Shown: positions 13,801 to 30,293, numbered from the stretch's first letter. The stretch: 32,000 nucleotides of DNA from an uncultured Candidatus Saccharimonas sp. (GCA_963528875.1 CAURWT010000001.1:180001-212000), one strand, 5' to 3'. Made by a program: numbers and translations. Notes: generated from the sequence alone by a model not told the origin.

Positions 13801-15660
13801 TTAAAATAATTCATTCGGATCGGCGTAACCGTTAGTCATCATATTGTCGCCCTGGCGATTTTTTGAACTATTTGGGCTGGTTGAAATAAGCTGATGTTCG
13901 GTGTCACTGGCGATGATTTGAATATGAACGTGATTTTGGCCTGCAAAGAATAATCCTTGCCCAACTGGGAAGTTCGAAAGGCGCTTTCGTTCTTCTTCGG
14001 TCAATTTAAAGACATCGCTCAAAACATCAACCGCACTTGAAGATTGTTTTAAAAGTAGCTGCATTGAGCTGTTTGAAACAATCGCTCGGCCCATTTTTGA
14101 ACCCATAAAGTCTTCAACGTCCTGCGAAATTGTAGTAAGGCCAAGATAATATTTTCGAGCACGTTTTGCTAAACTGAATAAGAAGTTTGCTGAATCATCG
14201 TATTTCATTAACTGCCAAGCTTCATCCACGATAAGCATTCGTTTTTTCTGTTCAGAACGCACAATATTCCAGATGTGAGAAAGCACAATGTACATCGCAA
14301 CTGGGCGAAGTTCATCTTCAAGGTCGCGAATGTTAAACACCACCATCGAGTTATTGATATCAATATTTGATTGCTGTGAGAAAATTCCTGCGAAAGTTCC
14401 GGTTGTGTATTTTCGAAGGCGTTGTGCCAAGCTTGGTCCGCTTCCATCCATATGGACTAAGGTGTCGTAAAGGTTATGAATTGTTGGTGGTGTTGAATTA
14501 TGTGTAAGCGGATCTGAAGTAATTCCAGCTCGAGCATAAGTGTCAATAATTGCTTGATCGAGGTCGGCTTCTTCATTTGGTGAAAGCCCAATTGATTGCC
14601 CTGCACTAGTTCCACCAAGCATTAATCGAAATAGACCGTGAAGCGTTACGATATTTGCACGAAGCGCGTTGTCTGCTTCTTCGGCATCAATAACGTGTGG
14701 TAAATCGAAAGGATTAATTCGAACATCCGAGTTTAAACTGAGGCGAATATAGCTTCCACCAACGGCATCGCTTAATTTTTGATATTCATTTTCTGGGTCG
14801 ATAATTAAGACCTCTGCACCCATCATCATTGTTCGAAGAGCTTCAAGTTTTACTGTAAAAGATTTACCAGCACCAGATTTTGCGAAAACCACCATGTTTG
14901 CATTTTCGAGTGTATAGCGGTCAAAGATTACGAGCCCATTATTGTGCATATTAACGCCATAAAGAACACCATTTTCTTGGGTTAAATCGGCAGAAGTAAA
15001 TGGAAATGAAGTTGAAATTGCACCAGTGTTCATATTTCGCCGAATTTGCAATTGGTCGGAAAGTTGTGGAACGGCAGATTTTAAACCTTGTTCCTGCTGG
15101 CTTGATGCAACTTTAGAAAACAGCATTTGCTGACCAAGCATTGTTTCAACTTTACTTCGAACAAAATTAAGCTCGTCAAGACTATCGGCATAAATTGTTA
15201 AATATAGACCGAAACGGAAGAACTTTTCAGCACCAAGTTGTAACTGATCTCGGAGCTCTTCGGCATCGTTCAAAGCAGCTTCAAGCGCTGGATCTCGGGT
15301 TCTACCTTTTTCGTTATTAATCGAAAGATCAGCTTCAAGCTGAGTAACTTTTCGACGAAGGTTTTTCATGACGATTTCAGTTTCAACAGGATAAATAAAC
15401 ATTGAAACATCTAAAACTTCATCAGCATTTAAGATTGGCGAAGCCCATCCAGTATAAAGCTGGCGGGGATAACCATAAACATAAATTGTTTGACCATATT
15501 TTGTGCCAAGTCGAAAATATCCTGAGTGAAATTCAAGACTTGATGGTGCGATTAAATCTCGCAAAGTGTTAATACCAGTTAAAAACGCTTGTTCAACTTC
15601 AGCTTGTTCTTGTGCTCGTTGTTGGGCTGCAATATCAACTGCATCTTTTTTCTTCACCAT
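13801..15660 (-). CDS. virB4: VirB4/TrbE-family type IV secretion ATPase
   Basis: 619 aa. Walker A FAKSGAGKSFT (aa 259-269), Walker B RMLIVDEAWQL (aa 474-484). N-terminal DLIAPSS...YGYPRQ...GW region is typical of VirB4-like ATPases of Gram-positive-type T4SS. Confidence 0.92.
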   Translation of the reverse strand: MVKKKDAVDIAAQQRAQEQAEVEQAFLTGINTLRDLIAPSSLEFHSGYFRLGTKYGQTIYVYGYPRQLYTGWASPILNADEVLDVSMFIYPVETEIVMKNLRRKVTQLEADLSINNEKGRTRDPALEAALNDAEELRDQLQLGAEKFFRFGLYLTIYADSLDELNFVRSKVETMLGQQMLFSKVASSQQEQGLKSAVPQLSDQLQIRRNMNTGAISTSFPFTSADLTQENGVLYGVNMHNNGLVIFDRYTLENANMVVFAKSGAGKSFTVKLEALRTMMMGAEVLIIDPENEYQKLSDAVGGSYIRLSLNSDVRINPFDLPHVIDAEEADNALRANIVTLHGLFRLMLGGTSAGQSIGLSPNEEADLDQAIIDTYARAGITSDPLTHNSTPPTIHNLYDTLVHMDGSGPSLAQRLRKYTTGTFAGIFSQQSNIDINNSMVVFNIRDLEDELRPVAMYIVLSHIWNIVRSEQKKRMLIVDEAWQLMKYDDSANFLFSLAKRARKYYLGLTTISQDVEDFMGSKMGRAIVSNSSMQLLLKQSSSAVDVLSDVFKLTEEERKRLSNFPVGQGLFFAGQNHVHIQIIASDTEHQLISTSPNSSKNRQGDNMMTNGYADPNELF

Positions 15661-15662
15661 AA

Positions 15663-16439
15663 TTAAAATTCTCCTTGATCTGGTCGCTCACCTTCAGCTT
15701 TTCGAACGAATAAACTTGCTGTATCATGAAAATCGCCCAAAGGTTCATAAACGGCCGTATCTGGGTTATAAACATTATAATAAAGTTCACCGAGTTCTTT
15801 AGTGTTTAATTGAACTGATTTGATTCCCATTTGGTAAAGACCACCAGTAATTGAATCAACGCGTTTTTTAATTTCTTCGCGTGCTTTATCCCAAGTGTTG
15901 CGGTCTATTTTCGAAATTTGAGCACCCGGTTTTGCAAAAATTTTACCAAAAAATCCTTTTGCTGAACCCTTTAAATTATTTAAGTCACCACTCGGATAAT
16001 AAGGAACCACAATAAAGAAAGATTTATCCATAATATTCGCACTTCGGCTAAGGCTATCAATAAAGTTAATGTAATCTTCCATTAAATCGCCAAGTAACAT
16101 ATTATCTTGAGCTACTTGAATTTCAGCCAATTTATTTAAATATGGTTCAATGTCAACTCGTTGTGAACGAACTAAAATCTGAATTGGAAAAGTTAATGCG
16201 TTCAAAAAACTTTGATAAGAATATTCCACACCCTCGCGTTCTCGTGCGCTCATAAGATCGAAGTTAATTGATTTGCAAGCAATAACAGCACGAAAGCTTC
16301 CGTCGCGCATTACCACCATTCCTTCGCGAAGTTCGGCGATTTCAAGCGAATTTTGTGTTGAAGATGGATTTGTTGGAGTATTTATATTTGTTTGGTTTTG
16401 GCTCTGATTTTGTTGATTATTAACTTGATTATTGTTCAT
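15663..16439 (-). CDS. Soluble T4SS-associated protein of unknown function with a Q/N-rich N-terminus
   Basis: 258 aa with no TM segment, packed 1-2 nt from both neighbours. The core (LEIAELREGMVVMRDGSFRAVIACKSINFDLMSAREREGV..FLNALTFPIQILVRS) reminds me of pre-ATPase N-domains of VirB4-like proteins. This is recollection only. Confidence 0.7.
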   Translation of the reverse strand: MNNNQVNNQQNQSQNQTNINTPTNPSSTQNSLEIAELREGMVVMRDGSFRAVIACKSINFDLMSAREREGVEYSYQSFLNALTFPIQILVRSQRVDIEPYLNKLAEIQVAQDNMLLGDLMEDYINFIDSLSRSANIMDKSFFIVVPYYPSGDLNNLKGSAKGFFGKIFAKPGAQISKIDRNTWDKAREEIKKRVDSITGGLYQMGIKSVQLNTKELGELYYNVYNPDTAVYEPLGDFHDTASLFVRKAEGERPDQGEF

Positions 16440-16440
16440 A

Positions 16441-17871
16441 TTACCTCAATGAAATTACTACTTCTTTTTCACCCAAGTCGACCTCGTTCGAATTTTCTTG
16501 GGCTTTCTTTTCTTTATCTGCTAGTTTGTTTGCTTGGCGTGCAAGTGTTTCCACCGAAAGATCTTTTCCCTCTGAAACTAATCTTTTCATTTCTGCGCTG
16601 ATCTTATTTGCAGATTCTCGTTCTGTGAGATGTCTTCTATTTACAAAAGGATTATTCTCTGGATTGGTAGAAATTCTAACTTTCGGATCTCGCTTTTCAT
16701 GCTCAACAGTTTCATTAATTTGCCTAATTCGTTCAAAACTGTTATTAATTCCTTCTAAATCTTGATTAAAATCATCTGGCGGATTTTCGAAATGGTTTTG
16801 TGGCTCTGATTGTTGAGCTGGTTGTGGTGCAGGTGGTGTAAAATTCGAAAGTGGCTGTGGTGAAGACTGCGTAAATTGCTGCGGTTGATTTTGCCAATTT
16901 GGTGAAATAACTGTTTGATTCATTGAATCTGGATAAGGATTGTAATTTAAATGAATATTTTCATCAAAATTTTGCTGCGGTTGATTTTGCCAATTTTTAT
17001 TTTGCTGAAAATTATTATAATTTTGTACTTGCGATTGATTCCAATTTTGCCAATTCGAAAAAGCCCCATTTTGCATTTGTGGCTGATTGTGGTTAAAATT
17101 CATTTGGTATTGATTTTGCTGATTCTGAGAAAAGGCTGTTGGCTTAGCTTCAGCTGGTTCTGAAACTTGAACATCTTCAAATTTAATATTGTCTGAACCT
17201 TCGTATCGATTTTTAGGGTCAAAATAATAAGTTTTGTCTTGAATGTTTTCCGAATTTTCATCTGTAAATTGTGCTAAATTTCGGGCCATATCAAGGTTTT
17301 GCATAATTTGCTGTTTTCGTCGCTGATCGTGTTGGTTTAATAAATTATCAACATTCGAAGAAACTCGTGAATTATCAAACATATCTTCGGCTGCACGAGC
17401 TTCATTTGAATATTCTTCACGAACAGTTGTATTAACTGGTGCAATAGAGTGTTTAATGGCCCACCCTTCAGTATCAACAATATCTGCTAAGTAGCTAAGT
17501 CTACGTGAGGCTTCATTTTGTGAAAGTTCTTTTGTGAGGTGCTCTTCTCTATTTACTGGTGCAGAAATTTGAATTAAATGTTCTACGCCATCCGGCTGCC
17601 AAAAACGCTTGTTTGGTTTTAAATAAAATGAAACAACTGCTGCAAGATAAGTTTCCATTGGTTGGTCTTTTCGAAGCGGTAAAGCAAGCGCACCAAAAAA
17701 GATAATAATAGGTAGTGGTAAAATAATTAGCCCCGGGAAAATTCCCCAAAGAAAAATCTCCAGCGCAATACAGCCTGCCACAATAATCAGGTAAATGAAT
17801 TGCCGAAAGTTAAACGGCCCAAGCAATTTGTCATCAGCCTCAACGTCTTGAGGAACTTTATAAACGCTCAT
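16441..17871 (-). CDS. PrgI-family (VirB3-like) membrane protein fused to a long Q/N/P-rich low-complexity region
   Basis: 476 aa. The N-terminus YKVPQDVEADDKLLGPFNFRQFIYL + two TM helices matches the PrgI-family pattern. aa 246-370 are dominated by Q, N, P and W (NWQNQPQQ occurs twice). The C-terminus is a charged, coiled-coil-like segment. Confidence 0.8.
   Translation of the reverse strand: MSVYKVPQDVEADDKLLGPFNFRQFIYLIIVAGCIALEIFLWGIFPGLIILPLPIIIFFGALALPLRKDQPMETYLAAVVSFYLKPNKRFWQPDGVEHLIQISAPVNREEHLTKELSQNEASRRLSYLADIVDTEGWAIKHSIAPVNTTVREEYSNEARAAEDMFDNSRVSSNVDNLLNQHDQRRKQQIMQNLDMARNLAQFTDENSENIQDKTYYFDPKNRYEGSDNIKFEDVQVSEPAEAKPTAFSQNQQNQYQMNFNHNQPQMQNGAFSNWQNWNQSQVQNYNNFQQNKNWQNQPQQNFDENIHLNYNPYPDSMNQTVISPNWQNQPQQFTQSSPQPLSNFTPPAPQPAQQSEPQNHFENPPDDFNQDLEGINNSFERIRQINETVEHEKRDPKVRISTNPENNPFVNRRHLTERESANKISAEMKRLVSEGKDLSVETLARQANKLADKEKKAQENSNEVDLGEKEVVISLR
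16876..16996. repeat. Perfect 25-nt direct repeat inside the Q/N-rich coding region
   Basis: ttgctgcggttgattttgccaattt occurs at 16876-16900 and again at 16972-16996, exactly 96 nt (32 codons) apart. Each copy encodes NWQNQPQQ. Confidence 0.85.
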
Positions 17872-17950: not shown

Positions 17951-17980
17951 AATAGGCAAAACATTTAGATTCTGCCTATT
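17951..17980 (-). terminator. Hairpin terminator/attenuator overlapping the stop codon of the VirB6-like gene
   Basis: Perfect 8-bp stem aataggca (17951-17958) / tgcctatt (17973-17980), followed on the minus strand by TTATTTTT. The TAG stop (17976-17978) lies in the stem. Confidence 0.55.
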
Positions 17981-20681
17981 TCTTGTCTTTAATATTTTCG
18001 GGCTTCCAATTTCCTCCCAAAACTTTATCATAAAGACCTTTATTATTTAGTTCAATCTCTTTAAGCATTTTGCGAATTTCAGCACCTTGCACGGCATTGA
18101 GTTTTCCGTATTCTGAAGGGTTTTCGTTAATAGCCTTAACACTTTCGAGTGTGGATCTAATGGTTTCGTTCGACATATTCGAAATTGCTGATTTATCCCA
18201 AATGATTTTCATTGCGTCATTTGAAGCTTTAATGATTTTATCGTCTGAGACATTTTTAGCGTAATTGTCGTGAATGGCATTATAAACTTCTTTCGAATTC
18301 ATTCCATTTACGGCGATATTTTCAAGTGCTGCACCACCAATAAATTGAAGATCGTCTTTTTTGGTTTTCTTGAAAGCTTCAACCAAGTCGTTTCGGTTAG
18401 CGTTCAATTCTCCACCAATTTCAGTTTTACCAAGTGAATCGATAGCACCTTTTAAGTCGGTTGTTCCCATAAACTTCTCGGCTGTTGCAGCACGTAAGTT
18501 TTTAGTAATTTCGAAATCAATTCCATCTTTCTGGATTTTTTCACCCATATTTTTCGAAAAGATTTCACTATAATCATTGCCTGAAAAATTAAGCGATTTT
18601 GTAAGGTTTGTGAGTGATTCGACTTCTTCTTTGTTCTCTTTCGAAGCTGCTACTAAAGAACTTGCAAGCGCCGAGACTTTTCCAGCTTCACCACGCACGC
18701 CAGATGCGGTTTCGAGCAAGTCGTTGCTGTAGCGCATATTATTTGCCATTGCATTATTGAGTGAAAGATTATTATTCTTTTCAGCCAGTTTAAGAGCATT
18801 TGTTTGATTCATATTATCAACAAATCGAAGTGCTTGTTCGCCAAATTTCCCGCGTAAAGCTTTTAGTGATGCTTCGCTTAAATCAACAACACCGGTAATG
18901 TTTCCGTTTGCATCTTTTTTGAGTGTTGAATTAAATAATTCTGCTTTAATTTGTGAAAGCCCAGCATTTGTACTTGCGGTTGCACGATTAAGAGCTTCAG
19001 TTGCTAACATTTCCTGATATTGTGTATCTGAGTTTATTAAATGCTTTTTACGAGCATTATAATACATGTTCGAAAACGCATTCGAACCTTCTGGCATATT
19101 TTGAATTGCATCTCGTCTTTCATTTTCAAGCTCCGTAAAGCGTTCTTTTTGATATAATTCTGCAATTGATTTTGAAGCACCAATTCGACGTCGGCGGTTG
19201 TAGTTCATTTGACTAATTCGTACAGGTAGTGAATTTGGCTTTTCTGCAATTGCACGATTTCGATACATTTCTTGGTTTTCTGAAAGGAATTTCTTTGCAC
19301 GATCAACCGGACCTTTGTTTGGATTATTGATGATTCCAGCAAATTTACCAAGCAGACTACCGCTAATTCGCATAATTGTTGGCGTAATTGCTAGCGGCAC
19401 AACTTGTACTACGGCACCAAGTAAGAAAATTAAAAAGCTACCGTTCGAACTTGCAATAATTGTTGTTCCGATTAATTGCGAACCTCCAAAAAGAAGAGAA
19501 ATTAACGGATACATCACGAGCATCGTAGTAAATAAATCTTTCCATTTTTCGAACCATTTTTCAGTATTTGGCAAAATATTCGCCGCAAATGCAAGTGGCG
19601 CTAAGAAAACTAAAACAATAATAATTGCCTGTCGCGCGGCTAAAATTACTAAAGCTACAACCGCCGAATAAATTACCGCAACTAGTGCTCCAAGAATCAT
19701 CATTACTGCAGCACCAATATTACCCATAGTTGCAACCGTTACAGTGTAAGCGCCATAAGCCACCACGCCAGTTCCGCTCAAAACTGCAGCGGTCATATTT
19801 GACCAATCAAGATTAGCTGTTTTTATCTTATTTTCACCGCCATTATTAAAAATGCTATCTCTAATCCCAATCAAAAGATTTTGAGTTTGTGCGCCTAAAA
19901 TATTCGAAATATCAACTAAAATTGCACAAATATAATAAGAAACATTAATTAAAATTGCTGCAATAATTAGCTTTGGCAATAATTTCTTAATTCCATAATT
20001 ACTGATTCCAAAACCTGTTACTTGCGAATAAATTACAAAAACAAATCCAATCACAAAAAAGACGTTTGCAACATTTCGCATATAATCCCAAACTTGAAAA
20101 AGACCAGATTGATTAGATGTATAAAGTGGTTGAACTCGCAAAAATGCTTGGAGCCAGTCATAAATACCATCCATCCATTTCGAAATCGTATTAGCGACCA
20201 TACAAACCATCCAGCCACCGCCACCCTCAACACTACAAAGTGATTTATCTTCATTTTTCGAAACACCATCAACTTTAACATCTTGTGCTTCGCCGTTTTG
20301 TTTTACATTTCCAAGCGCACTTACATCAAATGAATAAATTTTTCCGCTTGAAGCATCATTCTCGTTTTCAAGAGCAATTACTGTTGTTTTATTTTCACCA
20401 GCATTTAATGAAGAATTTTCGGCATAAAGTTTTTTTGAACGAATTGATTCTGGGAATCTTGAAGTATCAGAAACTTTTGAATATGTTTTTCCGTTATATG
20501 TTATGCCATTTTTTGAAGAATCTGTCCATTTTGCTCCATCAATAGCAAGGGCGATATTCGAATTAAAAAATCCCAAGATTGCGACTACTGTAAAGATCGC
20601 GATGAAAAACACATTTCGAAAATCTTGAGTTTTTGCTTTTTTGAACCTCGCCAAAGTTTGCATATGACCTGATTTTATCAT
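17976..20681 (-). CDS. VirB6/TrbL-like polytopic T4SS channel protein with an N-terminal exposed domain and a long hydrophilic C-terminal half
   Basis: 901 aa. Signal/anchor segment, about 110-aa exposed region, then a block of at least 6 TM helices (aa ~150-450) of the kind seen in TrbL/VirB6, PrgH and TcpH-type proteins, then about 450 hydrophilic residues. The true start is probably Met7 (ATG at 20663) because a consensus promoter overlaps the first ATG. Confidence 0.8.
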   Translation of the reverse strand: MIKSGHMQTLARFKKAKTQDFRNVFFIAIFTVVAILGFFNSNIALAIDGAKWTDSSKNGITYNGKTYSKVSDTSRFPESIRSKKLYAENSSLNAGENKTTVIALENENDASSGKIYSFDVSALGNVKQNGEAQDVKVDGVSKNEDKSLCSVEGGGGWMVCMVANTISKWMDGIYDWLQAFLRVQPLYTSNQSGLFQVWDYMRNVANVFFVIGFVFVIYSQVTGFGISNYGIKKLLPKLIIAAILINVSYYICAILVDISNILGAQTQNLLIGIRDSIFNNGGENKIKTANLDWSNMTAAVLSGTGVVAYGAYTVTVATMGNIGAAVMMILGALVAVIYSAVVALVILAARQAIIIVLVFLAPLAFAANILPNTEKWFEKWKDLFTTMLVMYPLISLLFGGSQLIGTTIIASSNGSFLIFLLGAVVQVVPLAITPTIMRISGSLLGKFAGIINNPNKGPVDRAKKFLSENQEMYRNRAIAEKPNSLPVRISQMNYNRRRRIGASKSIAELYQKERFTELENERRDAIQNMPEGSNAFSNMYYNARKKHLINSDTQYQEMLATEALNRATASTNAGLSQIKAELFNSTLKKDANGNITGVVDLSEASLKALRGKFGEQALRFVDNMNQTNALKLAEKNNNLSLNNAMANNMRYSNDLLETASGVRGEAGKVSALASSLVAASKENKEEVESLTNLTKSLNFSGNDYSEIFSKNMGEKIQKDGIDFEITKNLRAATAEKFMGTTDLKGAIDSLGKTEIGGELNANRNDLVEAFKKTKKDDLQFIGGAALENIAVNGMNSKEVYNAIHDNYAKNVSDDKIIKASNDAMKIIWDKSAISNMSNETIRSTLESVKAINENPSEYGKLNAVQGAEIRKMLKEIELNNKGLYDKVLGGNWKPENIKDKK

Positions 20682-20700
20682 AATTTAACCCTTTTGTCAA
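20672..20700 (-). promoter_or_regulatory. Near-consensus promoter TTGACA-17-TGaTAAAAT for the VirB6-like gene
   Basis: On the minus strand: -35 TTGACA (20695-20700), 17-nt spacer, TG (20679-20680), -10 TAAAAT (20672-20677). The ATG at 20663 begins 9 nt after the -10, so the transcript would be nearly leaderless. Confidence 0.6.
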
Positions 20701-20768
20701 CCTTAAAATTAAGTTTTTAGAATAAAACACTTGCTTTTTCCCTAAAAATGGTTTAAAGTATAATTATC

Positions 20769-21218
20769 ATGGTAAACAAAATAAAAAATATAATAATAGT
20801 TGGGCTGATTTTGACAAGCTTTTTCGCGGCTTTTCAGAGTATTATTATTTCGAATTATGGCTCTAGCTATGCTTTTGCTGAAGAGCTTGTGGAGGATGGT
20901 AATGGAAATCTAACCACGCCAAATGGTAATAACGGTAAAAGTGGTGGATCTCCCGCTGAAGCAAAAACTGCAATTCTCCCTTCAGACTGGAAAATTGAAG
21001 ATATTTTAAATATGGTTTTAGTTGTAGTAACTACTGGCGTTGGAATTGCAGCAGTTGGCTCGATTGTCTTTGCTGGCGTTTTGTATATTACCGCTCGCGA
21101 TAATGCTGCACAAGTTTCGAAAGCTAAAACAATGATTATGAATACAATTATCGGTATTATAGCTTATATTTTAATGTGGGCGTTCTTAGAGTGGATTATT
21201 CCAGGAGGAATTTTATAA
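20769..21218 (+). CDS. VirB2/TrbC-like T4SS pilin paralog 1
   Basis: 149 aa. Signal peptide, variable region, then a two-helix hydrophobic core with a polar loop (AGVLYITARDNAAQVSKAKTMIMNTIIGIIAYIL) shared with the five following ORFs. Confidence 0.8.
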   Translation: MVNKIKNIIIVGLILTSFFAAFQSIIISNYGSSYAFAEELVEDGNGNLTTPNGNNGKSGGSPAEAKTAILPSDWKIEDILNMVLVVVTTGVGIAAVGSIVFAGVLYITARDNAAQVSKAKTMIMNTIIGIIAYILMWAFLEWIIPGGIL

Positions 21219-21646
21219 TGAAAAAGATTATTCTAGCGATTTTTATAACTTTTATGCCAGTTTTATATTTTTCGAATAGTGCTTATGCGGCTGGTTGTAA
21301 CGATAATCAAACTTTTTTCGGTCTCCCCGCTTGGTATCGTGGATTAACTAAATCTGGCGAAGGCGGATGCCAAATTAAAAATATTGGGCCGTCTGGAAAG
21401 GGTGAAGTTACTTTAGAACAGTTTGTCTGGACAGTGGTTGCGAATGTTATTGATATGGCCTTTCGAATTGCTGGTGTTGCTGCAATAGGATTCATTATTT
21501 ATGCAGGTTATCAATATATGATTGCTGTTGGTGACCCAGGAAAACTTGCAGGTGCTAAAAAATCACTAACTAATGCAATAATCGGACTAGTGATTGCGGT
21601 TCTTGCTTCAACAATAGTAACGTTTATATTAGGAATTTTAGGATAA
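21218..21646 (+). CDS. VirB2/TrbC-like T4SS pilin paralog 2
   Basis: I place the start at 21218 (MKKIILAIFITF...) rather than the track's 21176. AGGAGG lies upstream and there is a TAATG overlap with paralog 1. Cys pair (AAGC...GGC), then the core AGYQYMIAVGDPGKLAGAKKSLTNAIIGLVIAVL. Confidence 0.8.
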   Translation: MKKIILAIFITFMPVLYFSNSAYAAGCNDNQTFFGLPAWYRGLTKSGEGGCQIKNIGPSGKGEVTLEQFVWTVVANVIDMAFRIAGVAAIGFIIYAGYQYMIAVGDPGKLAGAKKSLTNAIIGLVIAVLASTIVTFILGILG

Positions 21647-21966
21647 TGAAAGAATATAGATTTTTAGCAGAAGCATCCTTTGATAAATCAAAAGTATTAA
21701 ACGGGATTGATACTTCAAATAAAAACAAAGCTAGCGATGCTTCGATGCAGAATGCTTTCAATACTGCTTTTATCTGGGCTGGAATTATCTGTGTAATTAT
21801 AATTATTGTGGCAGGATTAACATTTATAACGGCTGCCGGAAATCCAGGAACAATTTCGAAAGCAAAATCTGCACTAATTTACGCTTGTGTAGGTATTGTT
21901 GTAATCATATCAGCCGCACTAATTGTTAACTTAATTCTTGGCGGATTACTAACGGGGTCAATATAA
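21646..21966 (+). CDS. VirB2/TrbC-like T4SS pilin paralog 3 (no obvious signal peptide)
   Basis: 106 aa. TAATG overlap at 21644-21648. Hydrophilic N-terminus, then the core AGLTFITAAGNPGTISKAKSALIYACVGIVVII. Confidence 0.75.
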   Translation: MKEYRFLAEASFDKSKVLNGIDTSNKNKASDASMQNAFNTAFIWAGIICVIIIIVAGLTFITAAGNPGTISKAKSALIYACVGIVVIISAALIVNLILGGLLTGSI

Positions 21967-22514
21967 TGAAAAAAATAATTTTAATAAGTAGCATTTTATT
22001 CTCAATAATTCTATCACCTATTGCTTTTGCGGAAGGTGGAACTAATGGGACTAATGGTAGTGGAGGAACATTTAACGCTTGCAAACATGTTGTTTCTGGA
22101 AAGACTGCAGTTTGTTCTGGTGATTCAAAAAATGCTACAAATATTGCTAAAAATATAATCTCCATTTTCCTGTGGGTTGTTGGTATAGCGGCGGTTATTG
22201 TTATTATTTACGCGGGAATAACATTTGTAACAGCAGCTGGAAATCCATCAGCAATTGCTCGAGCCAAAACAATGATAATTTATGCTGTTATTGGTTTAGC
22301 AGTTGCAATTCTCTCTTATGCGATTGTTAATTTCGTTATTAACACTTCAAGTGGAAAAGGAGTTAATGGAGGACCATCTGGAAGCTCGGGCAATTCTAGT
22401 GAATCTAATAATTCAAGTGGCTCAACTAATACTGGATCACAAAGTAAAAACCAAAATGGTGAAAATAGTTCAGGACAAAGTTCAAGCGGTTCGAATAGCT
22501 CAAATAATAATTAA
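21966..22514 (+). CDS. VirB2/TrbC-like T4SS pilin paralog 4 with a S/N/G-rich C-terminal tail
   Basis: 182 aa. TAATG overlap at 21964-21968. Signal peptide, Cys pair (NACKHVVSGKTAVCSG), core AGITFVTAAGNPSAIARAKTMIIYAVIGLAVAILSYAIVNFVIN, then about 55 aa of S/N/G low complexity. Confidence 0.8.
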   Translation: MKKIILISSILFSIILSPIAFAEGGTNGTNGSGGTFNACKHVVSGKTAVCSGDSKNATNIAKNIISIFLWVVGIAAVIVIIYAGITFVTAAGNPSAIARAKTMIIYAVIGLAVAILSYAIVNFVINTSSGKGVNGGPSGSSGNSSESNNSSGSTNTGSQSKNQNGENSSGQSSSGSNSSNNN

Positions 22515-22534
22515 AACAATATAAGGAGAATAAA

Positions 22535-22924
22535 ATGAAGAAAATTTTAATAGCTTTTGGATTAATTCTTGCGGTGACTGGCTCTTTTGCCTTCAATGCT
22601 GGATTTTTCGAAAAACAAGCTTATGCAAATAGTGCAGCAGATTTAATTAAACAAGGTGCAGATTCAACAGGCCAACAAGATACTCGTTCAGCTGGTGATA
22701 TTGCTAAAGATGTTGTAAATATAATGTTCTTTATCATTGGTGTTATGGCGGTTATTATGATTATTTGGGGTGGAATTCGATATGTTCTTTCAGCTGGAAA
22801 TAGTGCTGCTCTCACTAGTGCGAAAAATACAATCGTCTACTCTATTATAGGTTTAATTATCGCAATCCTCGCATACGCAATTGTGAACTTTGTTATTAAT
22901 ACTGTTGCAGGCGGCAATCGGTAA
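22535..22924 (+). CDS. VirB2/TrbC-like T4SS pilin paralog 5
   Basis: 129 aa. AAGGAG Shine-Dalgarno upstream. Signal peptide, then core GGIRYVLSAGNSAALTSAKNTIVYSIIGLIIAILAYAIVNFVIN. Confidence 0.8.
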   Translation: MKKILIAFGLILAVTGSFAFNAGFFEKQAYANSAADLIKQGADSTGQQDTRSAGDIAKDVVNIMFFIIGVMAVIMIIWGGIRYVLSAGNSAALTSAKNTIVYSIIGLIIAILAYAIVNFVINTVAGGNR

Positions 22925-22985
22925 TCATAAGACTTCAGATTTAAGTTTGTTAAGTTGAATGATGGATGGCTAATAATTAAAATAC

Positions 22986-23013
22986 TTGCAAAATAGTAAA
23001 AATTTGATATAAT
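22986..23013 (+). promoter_or_regulatory. Promoter TTGCAA-16-TGaTATAAT for pilin paralog 6
   Basis: -35 TTGCAA (22986-22991), TG (23005-23006), -10 TATAAT (23008-23013). Confidence 0.55.
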
Positions 23014-23052
23014 TTAGGTATATATAATTTAAGAAAGGAAATGTAATTTAAA

Positions 23053-23469
23053 ATGAAAAATATTGTAAAAATGGCTCTATTGACCGCTGCGACAATATTC
23101 ACTGTTGGTGCTACTACACTTGTAACAATTCCAGCTTACGCTGCTGATTGTAAGGTTACTGGTGGTTTGAAATCTGCTGATAGCTGTGCTAAAGGTGTTC
23201 AAGAAGAAAATGGTGGTCCAACAAGCTTGTTTGATGGCGACTCTCCAATTTTCACGACTGCAATCAATATTATGTTATTTATAATTGGTATTCTTAGCGT
23301 GATTATGCTTATTTATGGTGGTATTCGCTATGTGCTTTCGAGTGGTGATGCTGGTGCTGTTCAAAACGCTAAAAATACAATTATGTATGCTATTATTGGT
23401 CTTGTAATTGCAATCCTTGCTTACGCAATTGTTAACTTCGTTATTCATTCGATTACTAATAAAGAATAA
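23053..23469 (+). CDS. VirB2/TrbC-like T4SS pilin paralog 6 (own promoter and terminator)
   Basis: 138 aa. Signal peptide (..IPAYA/AD), Cys pair (ADCKVTGGLKSADSC), core GGIRYVLSSGDAGAVQNAKNTIMYAIIGLVIAILAYAIVNFVIH. Confidence 0.8.
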   Translation: MKNIVKMALLTAATIFTVGATTLVTIPAYAADCKVTGGLKSADSCAKGVQEENGGPTSLFDGDSPIFTTAINIMLFIIGILSVIMLIYGGIRYVLSSGDAGAVQNAKNTIMYAIIGLVIAILAYAIVNFVIHSITNKE

Positions 23470-23483
23470 TAAAATAAATAAAA

Positions 23484-23509
23484 AGACTTCATTTTGCAGA
23501 GGTCTTTTT
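23484..23509 (+). terminator. Rho-independent terminator after pilin paralog 6
   Basis: Stem agacttc (23484-23490) / gaggtct (23499-23505), with one G-U pair, followed by a T-run. Confidence 0.6.
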
Positions 23510-23562
23510 ATTTATTCGAAAATTTGTAAATTTTAAAAAATAAACTGATATAATAAAAATCC

Positions 23563-23592: not shown

Positions 23593-24060
23593 CTACAGAA
23601 CTTTAATTCGTGTTGCTTGAGTTTTAACCTTTGTAAAGCTGATTGTTAAAATTCCATCTTTCAACATTGCTTCAACTTCATCTTCTTTGATCGGAACTGG
23701 AAGAGTTAGTGTTCGGCTAAATTCTCCCCAGTAGCATTCTTGTGCATGATGAGCGATAATTCCCTCTTGATCACCAGGATTTAGACTTCCGCTAATCGTT
23801 AAAGTTCCATCTGAAAGTGAAACATCCAAGTCATTTTTATTCACACCCGCAGTTCGTGCTTTAACAAAAAGCTTATCTTCTGTTTCATAAACATCAACAG
23901 CTAATTGACCAGGAAGTTCATTTTCTTCTTCCGCAATTTCAATTTGTTCAGATCCGCTGAAAGCTTCGTTTTCTGAAGTTTCCATCAAATCATCCCCAAA
24001 ATTGAAAGCAGCTTCCAATTCATCATTCAAAAAGCTATCATCATTTTGTCTTCTAGCCAT
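23593..24060 (-). CDS. Hsp20/alpha-crystallin family small heat-shock protein
   Basis: 155 aa. LAVDVYETEDKLFVKARTAGVNKNDLDVSLSDGTLTISG...GILTISF is the alpha-crystallin domain pattern. Strong GGAGGAAAA Shine-Dalgarno before the ATG. Confidence 0.92.
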   Translation of the reverse strand: MARRQNDDSFLNDELEAAFNFGDDLMETSENEAFSGSEQIEIAEEENELPGQLAVDVYETEDKLFVKARTAGVNKNDLDVSLSDGTLTISGSLNPGDQEGIIAHHAQECYWGEFSRTLTLPVPIKEDEVEAMLKDGILTISFTKVKTQATRIKVL

Positions 24061-24151
24061 TTTTCCTCCGCATTAAATTTCCTAAATAAGATTAATTTAC
24101 TTTATTATACCGCACTTTTATTATATAATCAAGAGGTAGAAACGATTTTTT

Positions 24152-24805
24152 ATGAAGAAAAGCATATACGAAATAATTTTAAATTCTTTCGCACCAGATG
24201 AGTGTTATTTTTGCCAAAAATTAGGCGAACCTATTTGCAAAAAATGCCTTGAATCAAGGTGTAATTTTGGTAATTCCCTTTCTCGCTCGAATAGTATTAT
24301 CTCGAAAGAATTTTATCTTTCGAAAAGGTCTGGAGAGCTTCAAAAAATAGTTGATGAATTTAAATTTCAAAGCAAGAGGCAGAATACTTATTATCTCGCA
24401 AAACTTTTATCTGATTTTCTGCTTTCGAATAGCGAATTTATTAATAATCGTGAAAAATTAGTTTTAATTCCTGTTCCAACACTTTCGAACCACATTCGTG
24501 AACGTGGTTTAGATCATACTGAGCTTTTGGCTCGTCAGCTTGCAGAGAATCTAAAAATTGAAAAATCAACATTAATTAAAAGAATAGCAAAAACTACACA
24601 ACGTGGCAAAAATTTTAAAACGCGACAAATTCAGGCAAAAAGTAGTTATGAGTTTACGGGAGAAAAGCTTTCGAAAGATAAAATTTATGTAATTTTTGAT
24701 GATATTCGTACAACTGGTGCAACTTTAAATTCGATCGCAAACCTCCTCCATCAAAACGGTGCAAAAGAAATTTGGGCGTTTTATTTACTTCAGCAAGAAA
24801 AATAA
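24152..24805 (+). CDS. comFC: ComF-family protein (ComFC-like phosphoribosyltransferase-fold competence protein)
   Basis: 217 aa. N-terminal 4-Cys cluster (C..C...C..C) and C-terminal PRTase motif VIFDDIRTTGATL. Confidence 0.85.
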   Translation: MKKSIYEIILNSFAPDECYFCQKLGEPICKKCLESRCNFGNSLSRSNSIISKEFYLSKRSGELQKIVDEFKFQSKRQNTYYLAKLLSDFLLSNSEFINNREKLVLIPVPTLSNHIRERGLDHTELLARQLAENLKIEKSTLIKRIAKTTQRGKNFKTRQIQAKSSYEFTGEKLSKDKIYVIFDDIRTTGATLNSIANLLHQNGAKEIWAFYLLQQEK

Positions 24806-24806
24806 C

Positions 24807-24835
24807 TTGAGAATTCAAAAAAAATGTGATATAAT
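24807..24835 (+). promoter_or_regulatory. Promoter TTGAGA-17-TGaTATAAT for tRNA-Ser(UGA)
   Basis: -35 at 24807-24812, TG at 24827-24828, -10 at 24830-24835. The tRNA starts at 24847. Confidence 0.55.
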
Positions 24836-24846
24836 GGAAAATATCT

Positions 24847-24936
24847 GGAGAGGTGGCCGAGTGGTTGAAGGCACCGGTCTTGAAAACCGGCATGCGGTAA
24901 AACGTATCGAGGGTTCGAATCCCTCCTTCTCCGCCA
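24847..24936 (+). tRNA. tRNA-Ser (anticodon UGA), CCA encoded
   Basis: Folded by hand. Acceptor GGAGAGG/CTTCTCC, anticodon stem CCGGT/ACCGG with loop CTTGAAA, long variable arm, T-arm GAGGG-TTCGAAT-CCCTC, then G-CCA. Confidence 0.93.
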
Positions 24937-25926: not shown

Positions 25927-27384
25927 ATGATTAAAAAAATACCAAAAAGAATAAAAAATAGTAAGATTATATATATTTCAATTATCATTTTATTACTTTT
26001 ACTGAGTGGAATTATATTTCTTAATAAAATTAACCATAATGTAGAAGAAAAACACAATCAAGATATTACAAAGTATTATTTTAAAGATTCGAAATATAAT
26101 GGAATTAGCTCAAAATTTATTGAAAGAAAAAATTCAAAAGAAGATGCTATATTAGAAATCCCTGTTACGAAGAATAATAAAATCAATGAATTTATAAATA
26201 ATAAAATTCAAGAAATTGATGATACTTTTAAAGATGATGCGAAAAAATCAACTTTCGAAAATATTTCAACTGAAAGAATTAGCTATCAAGTTTATTATAA
26301 TAACGATGATGCTATTTCAATTTTAATTTCAATCAAACAAGATACTCATGGAGCGAATTTGAATGATCAAAATTTATTTTGGACTTTCAATGCTAAAAAT
26401 GGAGAAATTATAAAATTTAGTGACTTTTTAAACAATAAAGAGAAAGATAAATCTAATATTTTAGAAATTATTAAAAATAAAATTCAAGATTATTTAAAAA
26501 ATAGTAAAAAAGAATTCTCGAATGAAATTTTGAATGATTTAGATTTTGAAAGTTTCGAAAATATAATAATATTAGATAAACAAACGATTGATTTCCCTTT
26601 CTCTAAAGGTCAAATTATTCCTTCTAATTTTTCTTCGGTTCAATTTCAAATTAAAATTTCAGAAATTTCTAATTTCTTGCAAAATGATTTTTCAAGAAAA
26701 ATATTCGAAGTTCCTGATATACAAAATTCGAAACAAGTTCAAAAGACAGCGCCATTAACTTCTCAATCTCCTCTTCTTGATAAAGATTGTTCGAAATGTA
26801 TTGCTTTAACCTTTGATGATGGACCGGGCATATATACTGATAAACTGCTTTCTTATCTTCAAAGTTATAAAGCGAAGGCAACTTTCTTCATGATTGGCCC
26901 AAGTGCTCAGAGATATCCTTCTATTGTAAAGCGAGTTTTTGATAATGGACATCAAATTGGTAATCATACTTGGTCTCATTCTTCCTTGCCAAGCCTATCT
27001 CCTGCGCAAATTCAAAATGAAATAGCCTCAACCAATAATATTTTACAAGGAATTACGGGTGTAAAACCTACTACACTTAGACCTCCATATGGTGCAACTA
27101 ATGCGGCCGTGCAAAGAGTTGTTTCTAATCTTGAAATGAGTTCAGTTTTATGGTCTGTTGACACTCGCGACTGGGCGGATAGAAATTCGAATATTGTTTG
27201 CAATAGAGCAATCTCGAACGTACGACCCGGTGCAATAATTTTAATGCATGACATTCACCGAACATCAGTTGAAGCGGTTCCATGTATTCTGCAGAATTTA
27301 AGTTCTCAAGGTTATCAATTTGTAACTGTTGATAAGTTGCTTGGTAATCTTCAGCCTGGGCATATATATTATTCAGCAAAATAA
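25927..27384 (+). CDS. Membrane-anchored polysaccharide (peptidoglycan-type) deacetylase, NodB homology domain
   Basis: 485 aa. N-terminal TM and a K/N-rich unknown domain of about 270 aa. The C-terminal NodB domain shows the motifs LTFDDGP, HQIGNHTWSH, LRPPYG and ILMHD. Confidence 0.88.
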   Translation: MIKKIPKRIKNSKIIYISIIILLLLLSGIIFLNKINHNVEEKHNQDITKYYFKDSKYNGISSKFIERKNSKEDAILEIPVTKNNKINEFINNKIQEIDDTFKDDAKKSTFENISTERISYQVYYNNDDAISILISIKQDTHGANLNDQNLFWTFNAKNGEIIKFSDFLNNKEKDKSNILEIIKNKIQDYLKNSKKEFSNEILNDLDFESFENIIILDKQTIDFPFSKGQIIPSNFSSVQFQIKISEISNFLQNDFSRKIFEVPDIQNSKQVQKTAPLTSQSPLLDKDCSKCIALTFDDGPGIYTDKLLSYLQSYKAKATFFMIGPSAQRYPSIVKRVFDNGHQIGNHTWSHSSLPSLSPAQIQNEIASTNNILQGITGVKPTTLRPPYGATNAAVQRVVSNLEMSSVLWSVDTRDWADRNSNIVCNRAISNVRPGAIILMHDIHRTSVEAVPCILQNLSSQGYQFVTVDKLLGNLQPGHIYYSAK

Positions 27385-27634: not shown

Positions 27635-28030
27635 ATGAAAAAGATGTTTTTTCAATTTGTTTTTGTTTATGTGTTTTCGCTAATTGCTGCGATATTACTG
27701 TTAATTCTCAAATCAGAAAGTTCAGAATTTAGCTATTTTATAGCACGAATTTTACTTTTTGGATACAGCGTACTAACGAGTGCGTTGCTTTTTGTTCCAA
27801 GATTTATAATAGGGTTATTAGAGAAGATTTTTAAGAATAGTGTTGATGACCTTAATGAATCTCTGGAAGATTCAATATCTTGGCCATATATTGTTTTATT
27901 TGTTTTTATTCTAGATGTATTCTTCGGATTAACTTTATTGATCCCTATATATGTTATTATACAATCTAGTTATATTTTATATAGGTTTGCTAGGATATAT
28001 AAAACTTTAATTTCAGAAAATCCAGAATAA
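27635..28030 (+). CDS. Hypothetical small polytopic membrane protein
   Basis: 131 aa with 3-4 hydrophobic helices and no recognisable motif. Lies in the TTCGAA-free segment. Confidence 0.6.
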   Translation: MKKMFFQFVFVYVFSLIAAILLLILKSESSEFSYFIARILLFGYSVLTSALLFVPRFIIGLLEKIFKNSVDDLNESLEDSISWPYIVLFVFILDVFFGLTLLIPIYVIIQSSYILYRFARIYKTLISENPE

Positions 28031-28239
28031 TAACCTCTCTAAGTCAGCAAAAGCTGGTTTTTTTATTTTTTAAAAATAAAAAAACTGCTATTTTTCTGAT
28101 TCCGATAATGTATTTGAAATAAAAAAGAATGCTGACAAATAAACATTCTTTTTTATGTTCACTTTGATAAACATTATAAAATTTGTCTGTTTAGTTACCA
28201 AAAAGCTACCAATAGATTTGTAATTTTTAAAAAATAAAT

Positions 28240-28326
28240 TAGTAGTACTATATTTAAATACCTAGTTATCTAAAAGAATAAATTTACTAGATTAGTAAAT
28301 TAGAATTTGCCAGTAATGATATTACT
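28240..28326. repeat. Three short palindromes sharing TAGTA/TACTA-type half-sites in a 400-bp AT-rich non-coding gap
   Basis: tagta-g-tacta (28240-28250). aatttacta-gat-tagtaaatt (28281-28301, perfect 9-bp arms). agtaat-gat-attact (28312-28326). Confidence 0.4.
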
Positions 28327-28430
28327 ATAGTTTGTTTCTATATAATCATTTATGGTTATTGAAGGAAAATACATTAATAACTACTATGTGCTTTTTTATA
28401 TAGCCTAGATGATTTTTACAAACACCCAGA

Positions 28431-30293
28431 TTATATATTAGCTAGCTTTGATTTGTAAAATTCTAACTCATCGTTAATTCTCATAACATAAAAAATGACT
28501 ATTTGGAGCAACTCTAAGTATTTTTTTTGATGTTCCTCTTCACTTTTATAAGAAAATTTTCCATGAGAGAATTTATTTCGAATCTTCAACCCATTACCAT
28601 ATTTTTTATCATCCAAAATATAAGATAAATAATTACTTTCATATTCAGAAAAAAGATTATCTGAATATTCACAATACCCTTTCTTGCAAAGGTCTTCTGT
28701 AATATCTAGTATCAATTTATCTTTATAGTATAGGCAATACGTACCTGACTTCCATAATTTATTCAAAATGTTAATTTCTTGGAAATTTGTAAATTTTATT
28801 ACATCATTTGATAGTCTTAAAATGTTCTTTTCTATTAGGATTTTTATTTGTTCTACCTGATAATCAGCAAAATCAGAAATCTTTACTCCTTCTTTTATAT
28901 GTTTGAAGAAGGTTTTAAGTTCTTTTTTTGATGAAATAAAGCTAAGTGGACTTTGGTCAGAAAAAAGCGCAGAGAACAATGCAGAATTATCAGGTGTGTT
29001 GTTCAATTTGATAAATTTTTTCTCATTGAACGATTTTAATGAAGCATAAGAGGAGGCTTTAGATTTAATCTCTAATAAATCTTGGTTGATTTCCCCATTT
29101 CTAACAAATAGTTCGTATTGGTCTAAGATACTATCCATTTCACAAATTATTGATTTCCCTCTTTCGTAATAAGAGGATTCTTTATTAGAAGCATGGAAAT
29201 GAAAACCTTTTATATCTAACTCCGTTTCAAGATAAATATTGAAATACCATTCTATTATCTCTTCGACATCAATTTTATTTTGTTTTAAGTAATTAAAATA
29301 TACCTTAAATAATAAATTGTGGTAAAATTTTAAGTGAGGACAATAAGAATCATAATGAGCATTTGATTTGTGAGAAAAGAAACGAGTGAAGCTGAATGTT
29401 TCTTCATTCGCAACTAGCCAATGCAATCCCGTTTCACGATTAAAGAAGCCAAGTAAATAAAAATTATTTAATAACGTCGGAAAATCATGATGTTCATCTA
29501 GTATAGTTTTATTTAAAAGAATACCATTCTCAATAGGCTCACATAATTTATCAGAATCTAAAGGCTTGATGCCAACTGATATAGAGTAATGCATCCCTTC
29601 ATTAGTTTCAAAATGTTTTTCCCAAAATTTATCACTTTTTCTTTTAGCTAAAAGCTTAACCTCATCATCAAACTCATATTTGCTTAATTTTTTATAATCA
29701 ACAATTGATTGTAAATAATTTGGGTTAATATTATCTTTCTGACAATATTCTCTTGCTAGATTATTTATCTCTTCATTTGTGATACCTAACTTAATGTATA
29801 AACCATTAGAATCTATGAATTTTCCTGATTGATGATTTAAGAAAAATTCTATATTTCTGGACCGAGAGAGAAAATTTTCTTTGATAACTTGCGGAAATAG
29901 GCTAATCAGTTTTGCAACATTTCTAAGATTTATTGTCTGGATATTATATTTTTTAATATATGATTCAAACTGACTAACATCATCTTTATTAATTTTTCCT
30001 AAGAATAATACTAACTCCCAGAATATGTCTTTATAAAAAATGTCAATGCTATCATAGTCTATTTCAAAAATGGTAATTGGGAAATTCTTGGATATATCGT
30101 TATGAAATTTTGAAATTAGATGTTTGAAGTTATAAAATTGATTTTCTTTTTTAATTAATTTCAGGATTAAATAGGTTTCTATTAAATTATTAATTTCAGC
30201 CGAAGGTCTATAAGCTTTAATGCAGTTTAGAGCTATATCATATTGGTATGGCTCTATTACATTGTTAGGAGTATGAAATCTTTTATGTTGCAT
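28431..30293 (-). CDS. Large uncharacterised protein with a C-terminal HEPN-like RNxxxH motif; candidate defence effector
   Basis: 620 aa, very AT-rich, K/N/F/Y-rich. No P-loop or nuclease motif that I recognise, except GLKIRNKFSHGKF (R572-H577, nt 28563-28580) followed by a predicted helix. Starts 77 nt downstream of the MmeI-like gene on the same strand. Confidence 0.75.
   Translation of the reverse strand: MQHKRFHTPNNVIEPYQYDIALNCIKAYRPSAEINNLIETYLILKLIKKENQFYNFKHLISKFHNDISKNFPITIFEIDYDSIDIFYKDIFWELVLFLGKINKDDVSQFESYIKKYNIQTINLRNVAKLISLFPQVIKENFLSRSRNIEFFLNHQSGKFIDSNGLYIKLGITNEEINNLAREYCQKDNINPNYLQSIVDYKKLSKYEFDDEVKLLAKRKSDKFWEKHFETNEGMHYSISVGIKPLDSDKLCEPIENGILLNKTILDEHHDFPTLLNNFYLLGFFNRETGLHWLVANEETFSFTRFFSHKSNAHYDSYCPHLKFYHNLLFKVYFNYLKQNKIDVEEIIEWYFNIYLETELDIKGFHFHASNKESSYYERGKSIICEMDSILDQYELFVRNGEINQDLLEIKSKASSYASLKSFNEKKFIKLNNTPDNSALFSALFSDQSPLSFISSKKELKTFFKHIKEGVKISDFADYQVEQIKILIEKNILRLSNDVIKFTNFQEINILNKLWKSGTYCLYYKDKLILDITEDLCKKGYCEYSDNLFSEYESNYLSYILDDKKYGNGLKIRNKFSHGKFSYKSEEEHQKKYLELLQIVIFYVMRINDELEFYKSKLANI

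Follow-up and report, generated by a model that had tools for sequence, protein, structure and literature searches.

In this work we examined six tandem genes, here named P1 to P6, which lie between positions 20769 and 23469 of a 32,000-nucleotide stretch of DNA (the window) from an uncultured Candidatus Saccharimonas sp. (GCA_963528875.1, CAURWT010000001.1:180001-212000). We consider it very probable that they encode VirB2-like pilin subunits of a chromosomal, origin-proximal type IV secretion system (T4SS) of the monoderm type, and that they are orthologous to the essential pilin array of Candidatus Southlakia epibionticum. The array had been pointed out in an earlier reading made from the sequence alone (the sequence-only reading). 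This was a correct observation of a kind already published, as the array is the direct counterpart of SEML1_0014-0019 of Candidatus S. epibionticum ML1, six pilins classed as essential by Wang et al. (2023, Cell; PMC10633639). New here are the collinear and ancient array positions, the constant lack of a signal peptide in P3, the LPAWY motif of P2 and the comparison of the N-terminal heads with the C-terminal cores of the proteins by the ratio of nonsynonymous to synonymous substitution rates (dN/dS).

Family membership and the two-helix core

All six open reading frames (ORFs) described by the sequence-only reading were found on the + strand: P1 at 20769-21218 (149 amino acids), P2 at 21218-21646 (142 amino acids counted from the ATG), P3 at 21646-21966 (106 amino acids), P4 at 21966-22514 (182 amino acids), P5 at 22535-22924 (129 amino acids) and P6 at 23053-23469 (138 amino acids). 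Their products match the Pfam family PF18895 (T4SS_pilin) with E-values between 3.5e-5 and 1.5e-13. P2 (51.1 bits), P3 (44.6), P4 (38.1), P5 (47.3) and P6 (42.1) score above the gathering score of 26.6 bits, and P1 lies just below it with 24.2 bits. P1 is nevertheless tied to the family by a hidden Markov model (HMM) derived from the locus (79 bits), by its BLAST match to P4 (47.8 bits) and by its ortholog SEML1_0014, which matches PF18895 at 2.6e-12. Because six adjacent ORFs match a single Pfam family and dozens of related genomes have such an array too, the array cannot be attributed to chance.

The relationship to the classical pilin family TrbC/VirB2 (PF04956, gathering score 27.9 bits) is more distant. 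Four of the six paralogs gave weak matches to corresponding parts of the PF04956 profile, P2 with 20.4 bits (E 5.9e-4), P3 with 19.1, P5 with 14.8 and P6 with 13.6. A homolog search with P6 returned 3550 sequences. Among 74 family members aligned with P6, all matched PF18895, 33 matched DUF6112 and 14 matched TrbC, and several homologs whose cores are about 55% identical to that of P6 reach 30-36 bits and so exceed the TrbC gathering score. T4SS_pilin and TrbC/VirB2 are therefore linked transitively through these P6-like homologs, and superfamily-level homology of the six proteins to TrbC/VirB2 is likely on the basis of these profile matches. All six also match the NCBIfam model NF045849 (Mbov_0395 pilin-like conjugal transfer) with 29.2-33.9 bits (E 2e-8 to 5e-7), below its cut-off of 40 bits. 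A tblastn search of 72,556 plasmids with P2 gave one weak match, to a Pontibacillus gene annotated as Mbov_0395 pilin-like, so that the family appears essentially absent from sequenced plasmids at the tblastn sensitivity used. Together with the T4SS genes in the neighbourhood, the PF18895 and the weak PF04956 matches bear out the assignment of the array to T4SS pilins of the VirB2/TrbC type.

The six proteins share a C-terminal module, as had been claimed, in which a short loop connects two long hydrophobic helices and the alignment shows invariant G, G, AK and G columns. Core identity between paralogs ranges from 27 to 69%, with the highest value for P5 and P6 (69%), versus 10-32% for the N-terminal heads, which is the level expected by chance. 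In the AlphaFold2 (AF2) model of P6 the helices span residues 66-95 and 100-135, with a predicted local distance difference test (pLDDT) score of at least 90 in the core. The AF2 model of P2 contains a helical hairpin (66-102/107-141; core pLDDT about 85-88) and small beta elements in the head, where the beta hairpins reach a pLDDT of about 68. Two hydrophobic segments at the C-terminal end are also visible in the hydropathy of the proteins. Some details of the sequence-only reading had to be corrected. P1 departs from the loop motif that it ascribed to all six proteins, with A-R-D-N in place of x-G-[ND] (D where G is expected), and the sequence given as AILAYAIVNFVI for P4 actually reads AILSYAIVNFVI. 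The heads, described as hypervariable, do differ between paralogs, but the term is overstated, since they are recognisably conserved between orthologs.

Signal peptides were called from hydropathy and visual inspection. Five of the proteins have signal-peptide-like N-termini that end in AxA (AFA before E in P1 and P4, AYA before A in P2 and P6, and AYA before N in P5). In P1 this segment is 37 amino acids long, helix 1 is four residues longer than in the other paralogs, and the C-terminus is conserved as IPGG(I/V)(L/F). P3 has a hydrophilic N-terminus of 33 amino acids followed directly by the two-helix core. Its lack of a hydrophobic signal segment, already pointed out, was confirmed by hydropathy and is common to every ortholog inspected; the gene at position 3 is short (90-108 amino acids) in every six-gene array surveyed. 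The Cys pairs reported for P2, P4 and P6 are C27/C51, C39/C50 and C33/C45, respectively. That of P4 is kept in its orthologs, that of P6 is lineage-specific and occurs only in close relatives of the window, and P5 has a signal peptide and no Cys. P6 carries a conserved LFGDxxIFTT segment that enters helix 1.

In P2 the Cys pair brackets the sequence F-G-L-P-A-W-Y-R-G-L, the Trp of which is invariant in 17 homologs. Over residues 25-55 (window 21290-21380) the motif can be written as C-x(2-5)-[FL]-[FL]-G-L-P-A-W-Y-x-G-L...C-x-[IV]-K. We know of no described function for this LPAWY head motif.

P4 ends in a tail rich in Ser, Asn and Gly (22341-22514, + strand), which had been put at 55 amino acids and counts 57 in the window. 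Among strains with 99-100% identical VirB4 its length varies from 15 to 77 amino acids, with 15 in two strains and 52-77 in the others. The loci concerned are L009 (3270-3689), L014 (3269-3688), L015 (3102-3707), L018 (1802-2386 and 2436-3041), L025 and L020. In L018, L025 and L020 a similar tail is found on P5 or P6, and environmental relatives have none. Tandem Repeats Finder detected no repeat structure that would account for the variation in length of the P4 tail. The tail is dispensable, as it is cut to 15 amino acids in two strains and shifts between P4 and P5 in relatives. It may serve as a surface spacer or as a target for glycosylation that is confined to the human-associated clade.

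Orthology and selection across Saccharimonadia

An HMM built from the six cores was used to scan 86 related loci. Where the flank extends as far as the array, most Saccharimonadia loci have five or six pilin genes at this same location. Positional orthology was evaluated on 20 six-gene arrays by recording where the best match of each protein fell when genomes from other lineages were compared, with 250 comparisons per position. P1 and P2 had their best cross-lineage match at their own position in every comparison (250/250 each), followed by P6 (223/250), P4 (186/250) and P3 (167/250). P5 matched its own position in 69 of the 250 comparisons and mostly fell on P6, its closest relative (140/250). 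As judged from these comparisons, the array positions are ancient, collinear ortholog groups across Saccharimonadia. Each of several positions also keeps its hallmarks throughout the group, namely the longer helix 1 and the IPGG end of P1, the LPAWY motif of P2, the shortness of P3 and its lack of a signal peptide, the Cys pair of P4 and the LFGDxxIFTT segment of P6.

Compared with the orthologs in L018, the heads are 48-84% and the cores 80-98% identical. P6 is the most conserved of the six paralogs, with an ortholog core identity of 64-98%, the highest of the array in seven of the eight genomes compared. The dN/dS ratio was computed by the Nei-Gojobori method on unsaturated distances. The heads evolve faster than the cores, with a dN two to five times that of the core, yet their dN/dS is 0.05-0.45, versus 0-0.15 for the cores. 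By this measure the heads are under relaxed purifying selection and not under diversifying selection.

In the otherwise close strain L013, the P1 ortholog (4418-4882) compared with P1 of the window has a dS of 0.84 and a dN of 0.22 in the head, and a dS of 0.25 in the core, a local mosaic that suggests recombination in the head-coding segment.

Fused pilins of 166-178 amino acids, with two T4SS_pilin cores and no signal peptide, were found in L087 (8001-8501, protein P0058) and as proteins P0053, P0062, P0072, P0074, P0080 and P0085. In L087 and near-identical contigs the fusion occupies array position 3, so that the five genes together still encode six cores. Of the seven fused proteins scanned, five score above the TrbC/VirB2 gathering threshold. 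Sequence comparison did not show which half of the fusion corresponds to P3 or to P5, both halves being most similar to the P6 core, which evolves slowly. The fusion suggests that, once assembled, the two cores are neighbours and share one topology.

In the relatives L020 (755-1198), L069 (65-361) and L073 (155-583), an additional T4SS_pilin gene of opposite orientation is located some kilobases past the array; none is present in the window.

Gene order, expression signals and neighbouring genes

P1 to P4 are chained by three TAATG stop/start overlaps, as had been noticed, at 21216-21220, 21644-21648 and 21964-21968. P4 and P5 are separated by 20 nucleotides, and P5 and P6 by 128 nucleotides. 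In all loci examined the genes at the first three junctions of the array overlap or nearly do so, and the last gene is invariably set off from its predecessor by a spacer. In the window, this spacer contains a promoter-like site on the + strand (22986-23013), composed of TTGCAA, 16 nucleotides and a TG-extended TATAAT box, which agrees with the consensus at 10 of 12 positions in addition to the TG. Six human-associated relatives have a promoter of the same type (10-12 of 12 positions, extended -10 box) 30-42 nucleotides upstream of the ATG of the last pilin gene. A search for RNA structure in the P5-P6 spacer found none (z 0.46). Downstream of P6 a hairpin terminator was predicted at 23473-23516 (+ strand), with a free energy of -19.1 kcal/mol and a z-score of -6.52, and none of 200 shuffled sequences folded as well. 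It is preceded by an A-run and followed by a U-run and is thus potentially bidirectional. The proposal that P6 has its own near-consensus promoter and its own terminator was thus upheld. P5 is preceded by a strong AAGGAG ribosome-binding site.

The divergent intergenic region between P1 and the adjoining VirB6-like gene (20682-20768) bears promoter-like sites on both strands and is a putative promoter region for both directions. P1 has a TATAAT box 5 nucleotides before its ATG and no Shine-Dalgarno sequence (window 20740-20771). A TATAAT-like box 4-9 nucleotides before the ATG of P1 is present in many Saccharimonadia, and the same junction was seen in L018, L020, L022, L024, L038, L041, L043 and L048. 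As this box is combined with the lack of a Shine-Dalgarno sequence, the mRNA from which P1 is translated may have no leader or almost none. For P2 the Shine-Dalgarno sequence is provided by the conserved Pro-Gly-Gly codons (CCAGGAGGA) at the C-terminal end of P1. For the VirB6-like gene the best promoter match is TTGACA-17-TAAAAT (11/12; window 20657-20700, - strand), the -10 box of which lies inside the annotated start of the ORF, and the true start of this gene may be the Met seven codons downstream, at about 20663.

The pilin array is divergent from the VirB6-like gene and from the T4SS cluster to which it belongs, and this cluster adjoins recF-dnaN-dnaA. All its genes are on the - strand. 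The VirB6/TrbL-like polytopic membrane protein (17976-20681, 901 amino acids) has a precomputed match to PF19590 (TrbL_3) and matches PF04610 (TrbL) with an E-value of 0.001. It is accompanied by a PrgI (VirB3-like) family protein (16441-17871, 476 amino acids; PF12666 at 1.3e-10), a TraC-like T4SS protein (15663-16439, 258 amino acids; PF26593 as a precomputed match, with no match in a separate Pfam scan), a VirB4-type ATPase (13801-15660, 619 amino acids; PF19044 P-loop_TraG at 3e-28, with AAA_10 and DUF87) and two cell-wall hydrolase genes (8915-13737), which encode a 1055-amino-acid M23 peptidase protein and a 551-amino-acid protein with lysozyme and GDSL domains (PF01551 at 6.7e-20, PF18013 at 3.8e-35 and PF13472). 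No coupling protein or relaxase was matched among the larger ORFs of the window that were scanned. On the 3' side the array is followed by an Hsp20 gene on the - strand, a ComFC-like phosphoribosyltransferase gene and a tRNA-Ser(TGA) gene (23593-24936). An Rfam scan of the window yielded three tRNAs and nothing else.

VirB4 is 80-100% identical to the Saccharibacteria VirB4 of 80 genomes. The identity is 98-100% with metagenome-assembled genomes from human samples labelled Candidatus Saccharimonas/Saccharibacteria and UMGS1907, 90% with Candidatus Nanogingivalis gingivitcus (TM7 G6, HOT-870) and about 80-84% with environmental Saccharimonadia. On these VirB4 identities, the window comes from a human-associated, G6/Nanogingivalis-related Saccharibacterium with a monoderm-type T4SS. 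Near-identical contigs with the same array occur in several metagenomes.

Elsewhere in the window, an MmeI-family restriction-modification gene was found on the - strand at 30371-31948. Its methyltransferase domain was matched from position 58 onward and no nuclease or N-terminal domain was matched, and the gene may be truncated or frameshifted at the edge of the window. An adjoining ORF of 620 amino acids (28431-30293, - strand) had no Pfam match at all. Three stretches (2001-3000, 26001-27000 and 28001-29000) have a very low G+C content (0.23-0.26, versus about 0.35 elsewhere); one of them lies in genes for LTD-domain surface proteins and one in the region of a polysaccharide deacetylase gene.

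Proposed assembly, alternatives and relation to known systems

Pilins of the VirB2 type, such as those of the F, T and RP4 pili, are inserted by the Sec machinery, cleaved, stored in the membrane as hairpins and extracted into a filament. By analogy, five of the propilins of the array would be exported by Sec and cleaved after AxA, and P3 would be inserted without cleavage. The six membrane hairpins would hold their Lys-bearing loop (G-[ND]-x5-6-A-K) in the cytoplasm and their N-terminal heads and C-termini outside. The VirB4 ATPase and a platform of the VirB6-like and PrgI-like proteins would extract the subunits to build an extracellular filament or conduit, which would cross the wall where it has been opened by the hydrolases of the cluster. 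In the filament the loop would line the lumen and the N-terminal head and the C-terminus would face outward, and the surface would be studded with the heads and the S/N-rich tail. P6 would be the major (shaft) subunit, because its gene is served by a conserved promoter of its own, a strong ribosome-binding site and a terminator, and because it evolves most slowly. P1 to P5 would form one translationally coupled operon, be made in lower amounts and serve as non-redundant minor subunits in initiation, at the tip or as adaptors. Since the window contains no relaxase or coupling protein among the ORFs scanned, and no recognisable one was reported for S. epibionticum (PMC10633639), the filament probably serves epibiotic contact with the host bacterium, in which molecules are transferred or taken up, and not conjugation.

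Several points weigh against the identification of the six genes as pilins and against the roles proposed for them. None of the six paralogs reaches the PF04956 gathering score, and by this curated test they are not members of that family. A Foldseek search of the PDB with the AF2 models of P6 and P2 gave generic helical hairpins only (chemoreceptors, ATP synthase subunit c, BAR domains), none at E 0.001 or better, and was uninformative. A profile of 74 family members had no match at E up to 10 among all PDB sequences. A T4SS pilus has yet to be observed in a Patescibacterium, and the role of this T4SS has been called 'completely unknown' (PMC11665869), and monoderm T4SSs are generally without pili (PMC12102498). 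The assignment of major and minor subunits is suggested by gene architecture and conservation, and the Tn-seq (transposon sequencing) essentiality of the first five genes in ML1 could partly reflect polar effects.

The lack of observed pili also speaks for a serious rival, in which the six proteins would be membrane-resident channel or stator parts of the T4SS translocon that never form an extended filament, as is assumed for the pilin-like proteins of Mycoplasma integrative and conjugative elements (ICEs). The sub-threshold NF045849 matches of all six proteins (29-34 bits), the Mbov_0395 annotation of the sole plasmid match and the two-core fusions, which would be four-helix membrane proteins, point in the same direction. 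However, the family is likely homologous to the pilus-forming VirB2/TrbC proteins, the 40-bit cut-off of NF045849 is not reached, and a surface structure is the better fit for heads outside the cytoplasm that bear disulfide-type Cys pairs and for long exposed tails, so that we regard this explanation as possible, though with the weight of the evidence against it. Much less can be said for two others. The view that the proteins are Sec-secreted effectors delivered to the host bacterium was the original interpretation of the TM7x array ('six putative effector genes') and agrees with the cleavable-looking signal peptides of five of the six. We consider it very improbable, as all the proteins end in a pair of long hydrophobic helices, for which the prediction is of high confidence, and pilin-family membership of all six is incompatible with soluble proteins. 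The sequence-only reading had itself been prepared to yield if the proteins lacked profile similarity to pilins or were unrelated small membrane proteins, such as holins or bacteriocin-immunity proteins. Such proteins would resemble pilins by hydrophobicity alone, and the generic hairpins returned by Foldseek would suit them, but the PF18895 matches are above threshold, the linkage to VirB4 and VirB6-like genes is conserved in dozens of genomes, and no holin or immunity family was found among the Pfam or NCBIfam matches in this T4SS context, which leaves that idea scarcely credible.

The choice between several pilin types with major and minor roles and head variation under antigenic or host-specificity pressure, both of which had been put forward by the sequence-only reading, depends on what is expected of a variation cassette. 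In such a cassette the genes would be interchangeable versions of one pilin with exposed heads that diversify, as proposed for the VirB2 paralog arrays of Bartonella and Anaplasma phagocytophilum, which are tandem, have divergent exposed parts and are read as antigenic or host-range variants, and as suggested for Patescibacteria (PMC12102498). Heads that cannot be aligned between paralogs, their higher dN, the local jump of dN and dS in the P1 head of L013 with its suggestion of recombination, and the differences between close strains in tail length and in the paralog that carries the tail would all be in keeping with it. Yet the positions are old ortholog groups in the same order across Saccharimonadia, the heads keep position-specific hallmarks (the LPAWY of P2, the Cys pair of P4 and the LFGDxxIFTT of P6), their dN/dS stays below 0.5, and all six orthologs are essential in ML1, which is unexpected of redundant variants and points to distinct roles. 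The lineage-specific duplication and diversifying selection of a Bartonella/Anaplasma-type array were thus not found, and we consider a variation cassette improbable. Major and minor pilins are preferred to antigenic hypervariation because of the positional orthology and the purifying selection, and the essentiality in ML1 further supports them.

A more specific form of this pilin interpretation holds that the six paralogs are obligatory, non-interchangeable subunits of one heteromeric VirB2-type filament, with P6 as the shaft and P1 to P5 as ordered minor subunits, which may include P3, of the leaderless type, and P2, with its LPAWY/disulfide head. It fits the conserved order of the array, the six essential orthologs in ML1 and the fusion of L087, which keeps six cores in five genes, and we put it forward as a tentative proposal that may well prove wrong. 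To our knowledge, such a heteromeric architecture would be unlike any among T4SSs and the first in a monoderm.

The closest known counterpart of the array, SEML1_0014-0019, encodes PF18895 proteins of 132, 185, 103, 126, 127 and 138 amino acids, all of them GD/ES/ES in Tn-seq (PMC10633639). Both arrays consist of six tandem PF18895 genes near the origin and divergent from a VirB6-like gene; in both the third gene is short (103 amino acids in ML1, 106 in the window) and the last encodes 138 amino acids. As Hsp20 (- strand), the ComFC-like phosphoribosyltransferase and tRNA-Ser follow in the same order as SEML1_0020-0022, the synteny with ML1 extends beyond the T4SS. The window differs from ML1 in coming from another Saccharibacteria lineage, found in human samples, and in the long S/N/G-rich tail of P4. 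Essentiality of the array is known for ML1 alone, from Tn-seq.

Quiñonero-Coronel et al. (2025; PMC12102498) described 441 arrays of 2-11 pilin genes, with a mean within-array identity of about 25% and located near dnaA, in 383 Patescibacteria assemblies. Like those arrays, which are abundant in Saccharimonadia, the present one consists of tandem VirB2-like pilins near virB4, in a T4SS near dnaA. That study stressed variability and suggested a versatile host range, whereas the positions of the window belong to conserved ortholog groups under purifying selection. Arrays of four to six small proteins with signal peptides, related to VirB2, were reported earlier for TM7x and in G1, G3, G5 and G6 Saccharibacteria (McLean et al. 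2018/2020; 10.1101/258137). They are of the same type as that of the window and were later treated as putative effectors, an interpretation opposed by the two-helix pilin core.

With the TrbC/VirB2 pilins of the T-pilus and RP4 the window proteins share a signal peptide, a helical hairpin with a short charged loop and a place beside VirB3-, VirB4- and VirB6-like genes, but they differ in their N-terminal heads of 20-45 amino acids and in the monoderm envelope; six types are encoded together, whereas the diderm systems have one major pilin plus VirB5. The Mbov_0395 proteins of Mycoplasma ICEs have a similar two-helix pilin-like core and belong to a monoderm or wall-less T4SS, but, unlike the six-member array, they are encoded by single genes.

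Few machines have been shown to be essential to Saccharibacteria as epibionts, and the T4SS with its pilin array is one of them. The window adds no new kind of system and provides a clean human-associated example, in which conserved position types, purifying selection, the promoter of the last gene and the P2 motif argue for distinct structural parts rather than a variation cassette. It also indicates targets for tagging or depletion, namely P6, the putative shaft, and P2 and P3, the putative special subunits. If the proposal of a heteromeric filament were true, this filament would be a feeding or exchange conduit between the ultrasmall epibiont and its host.

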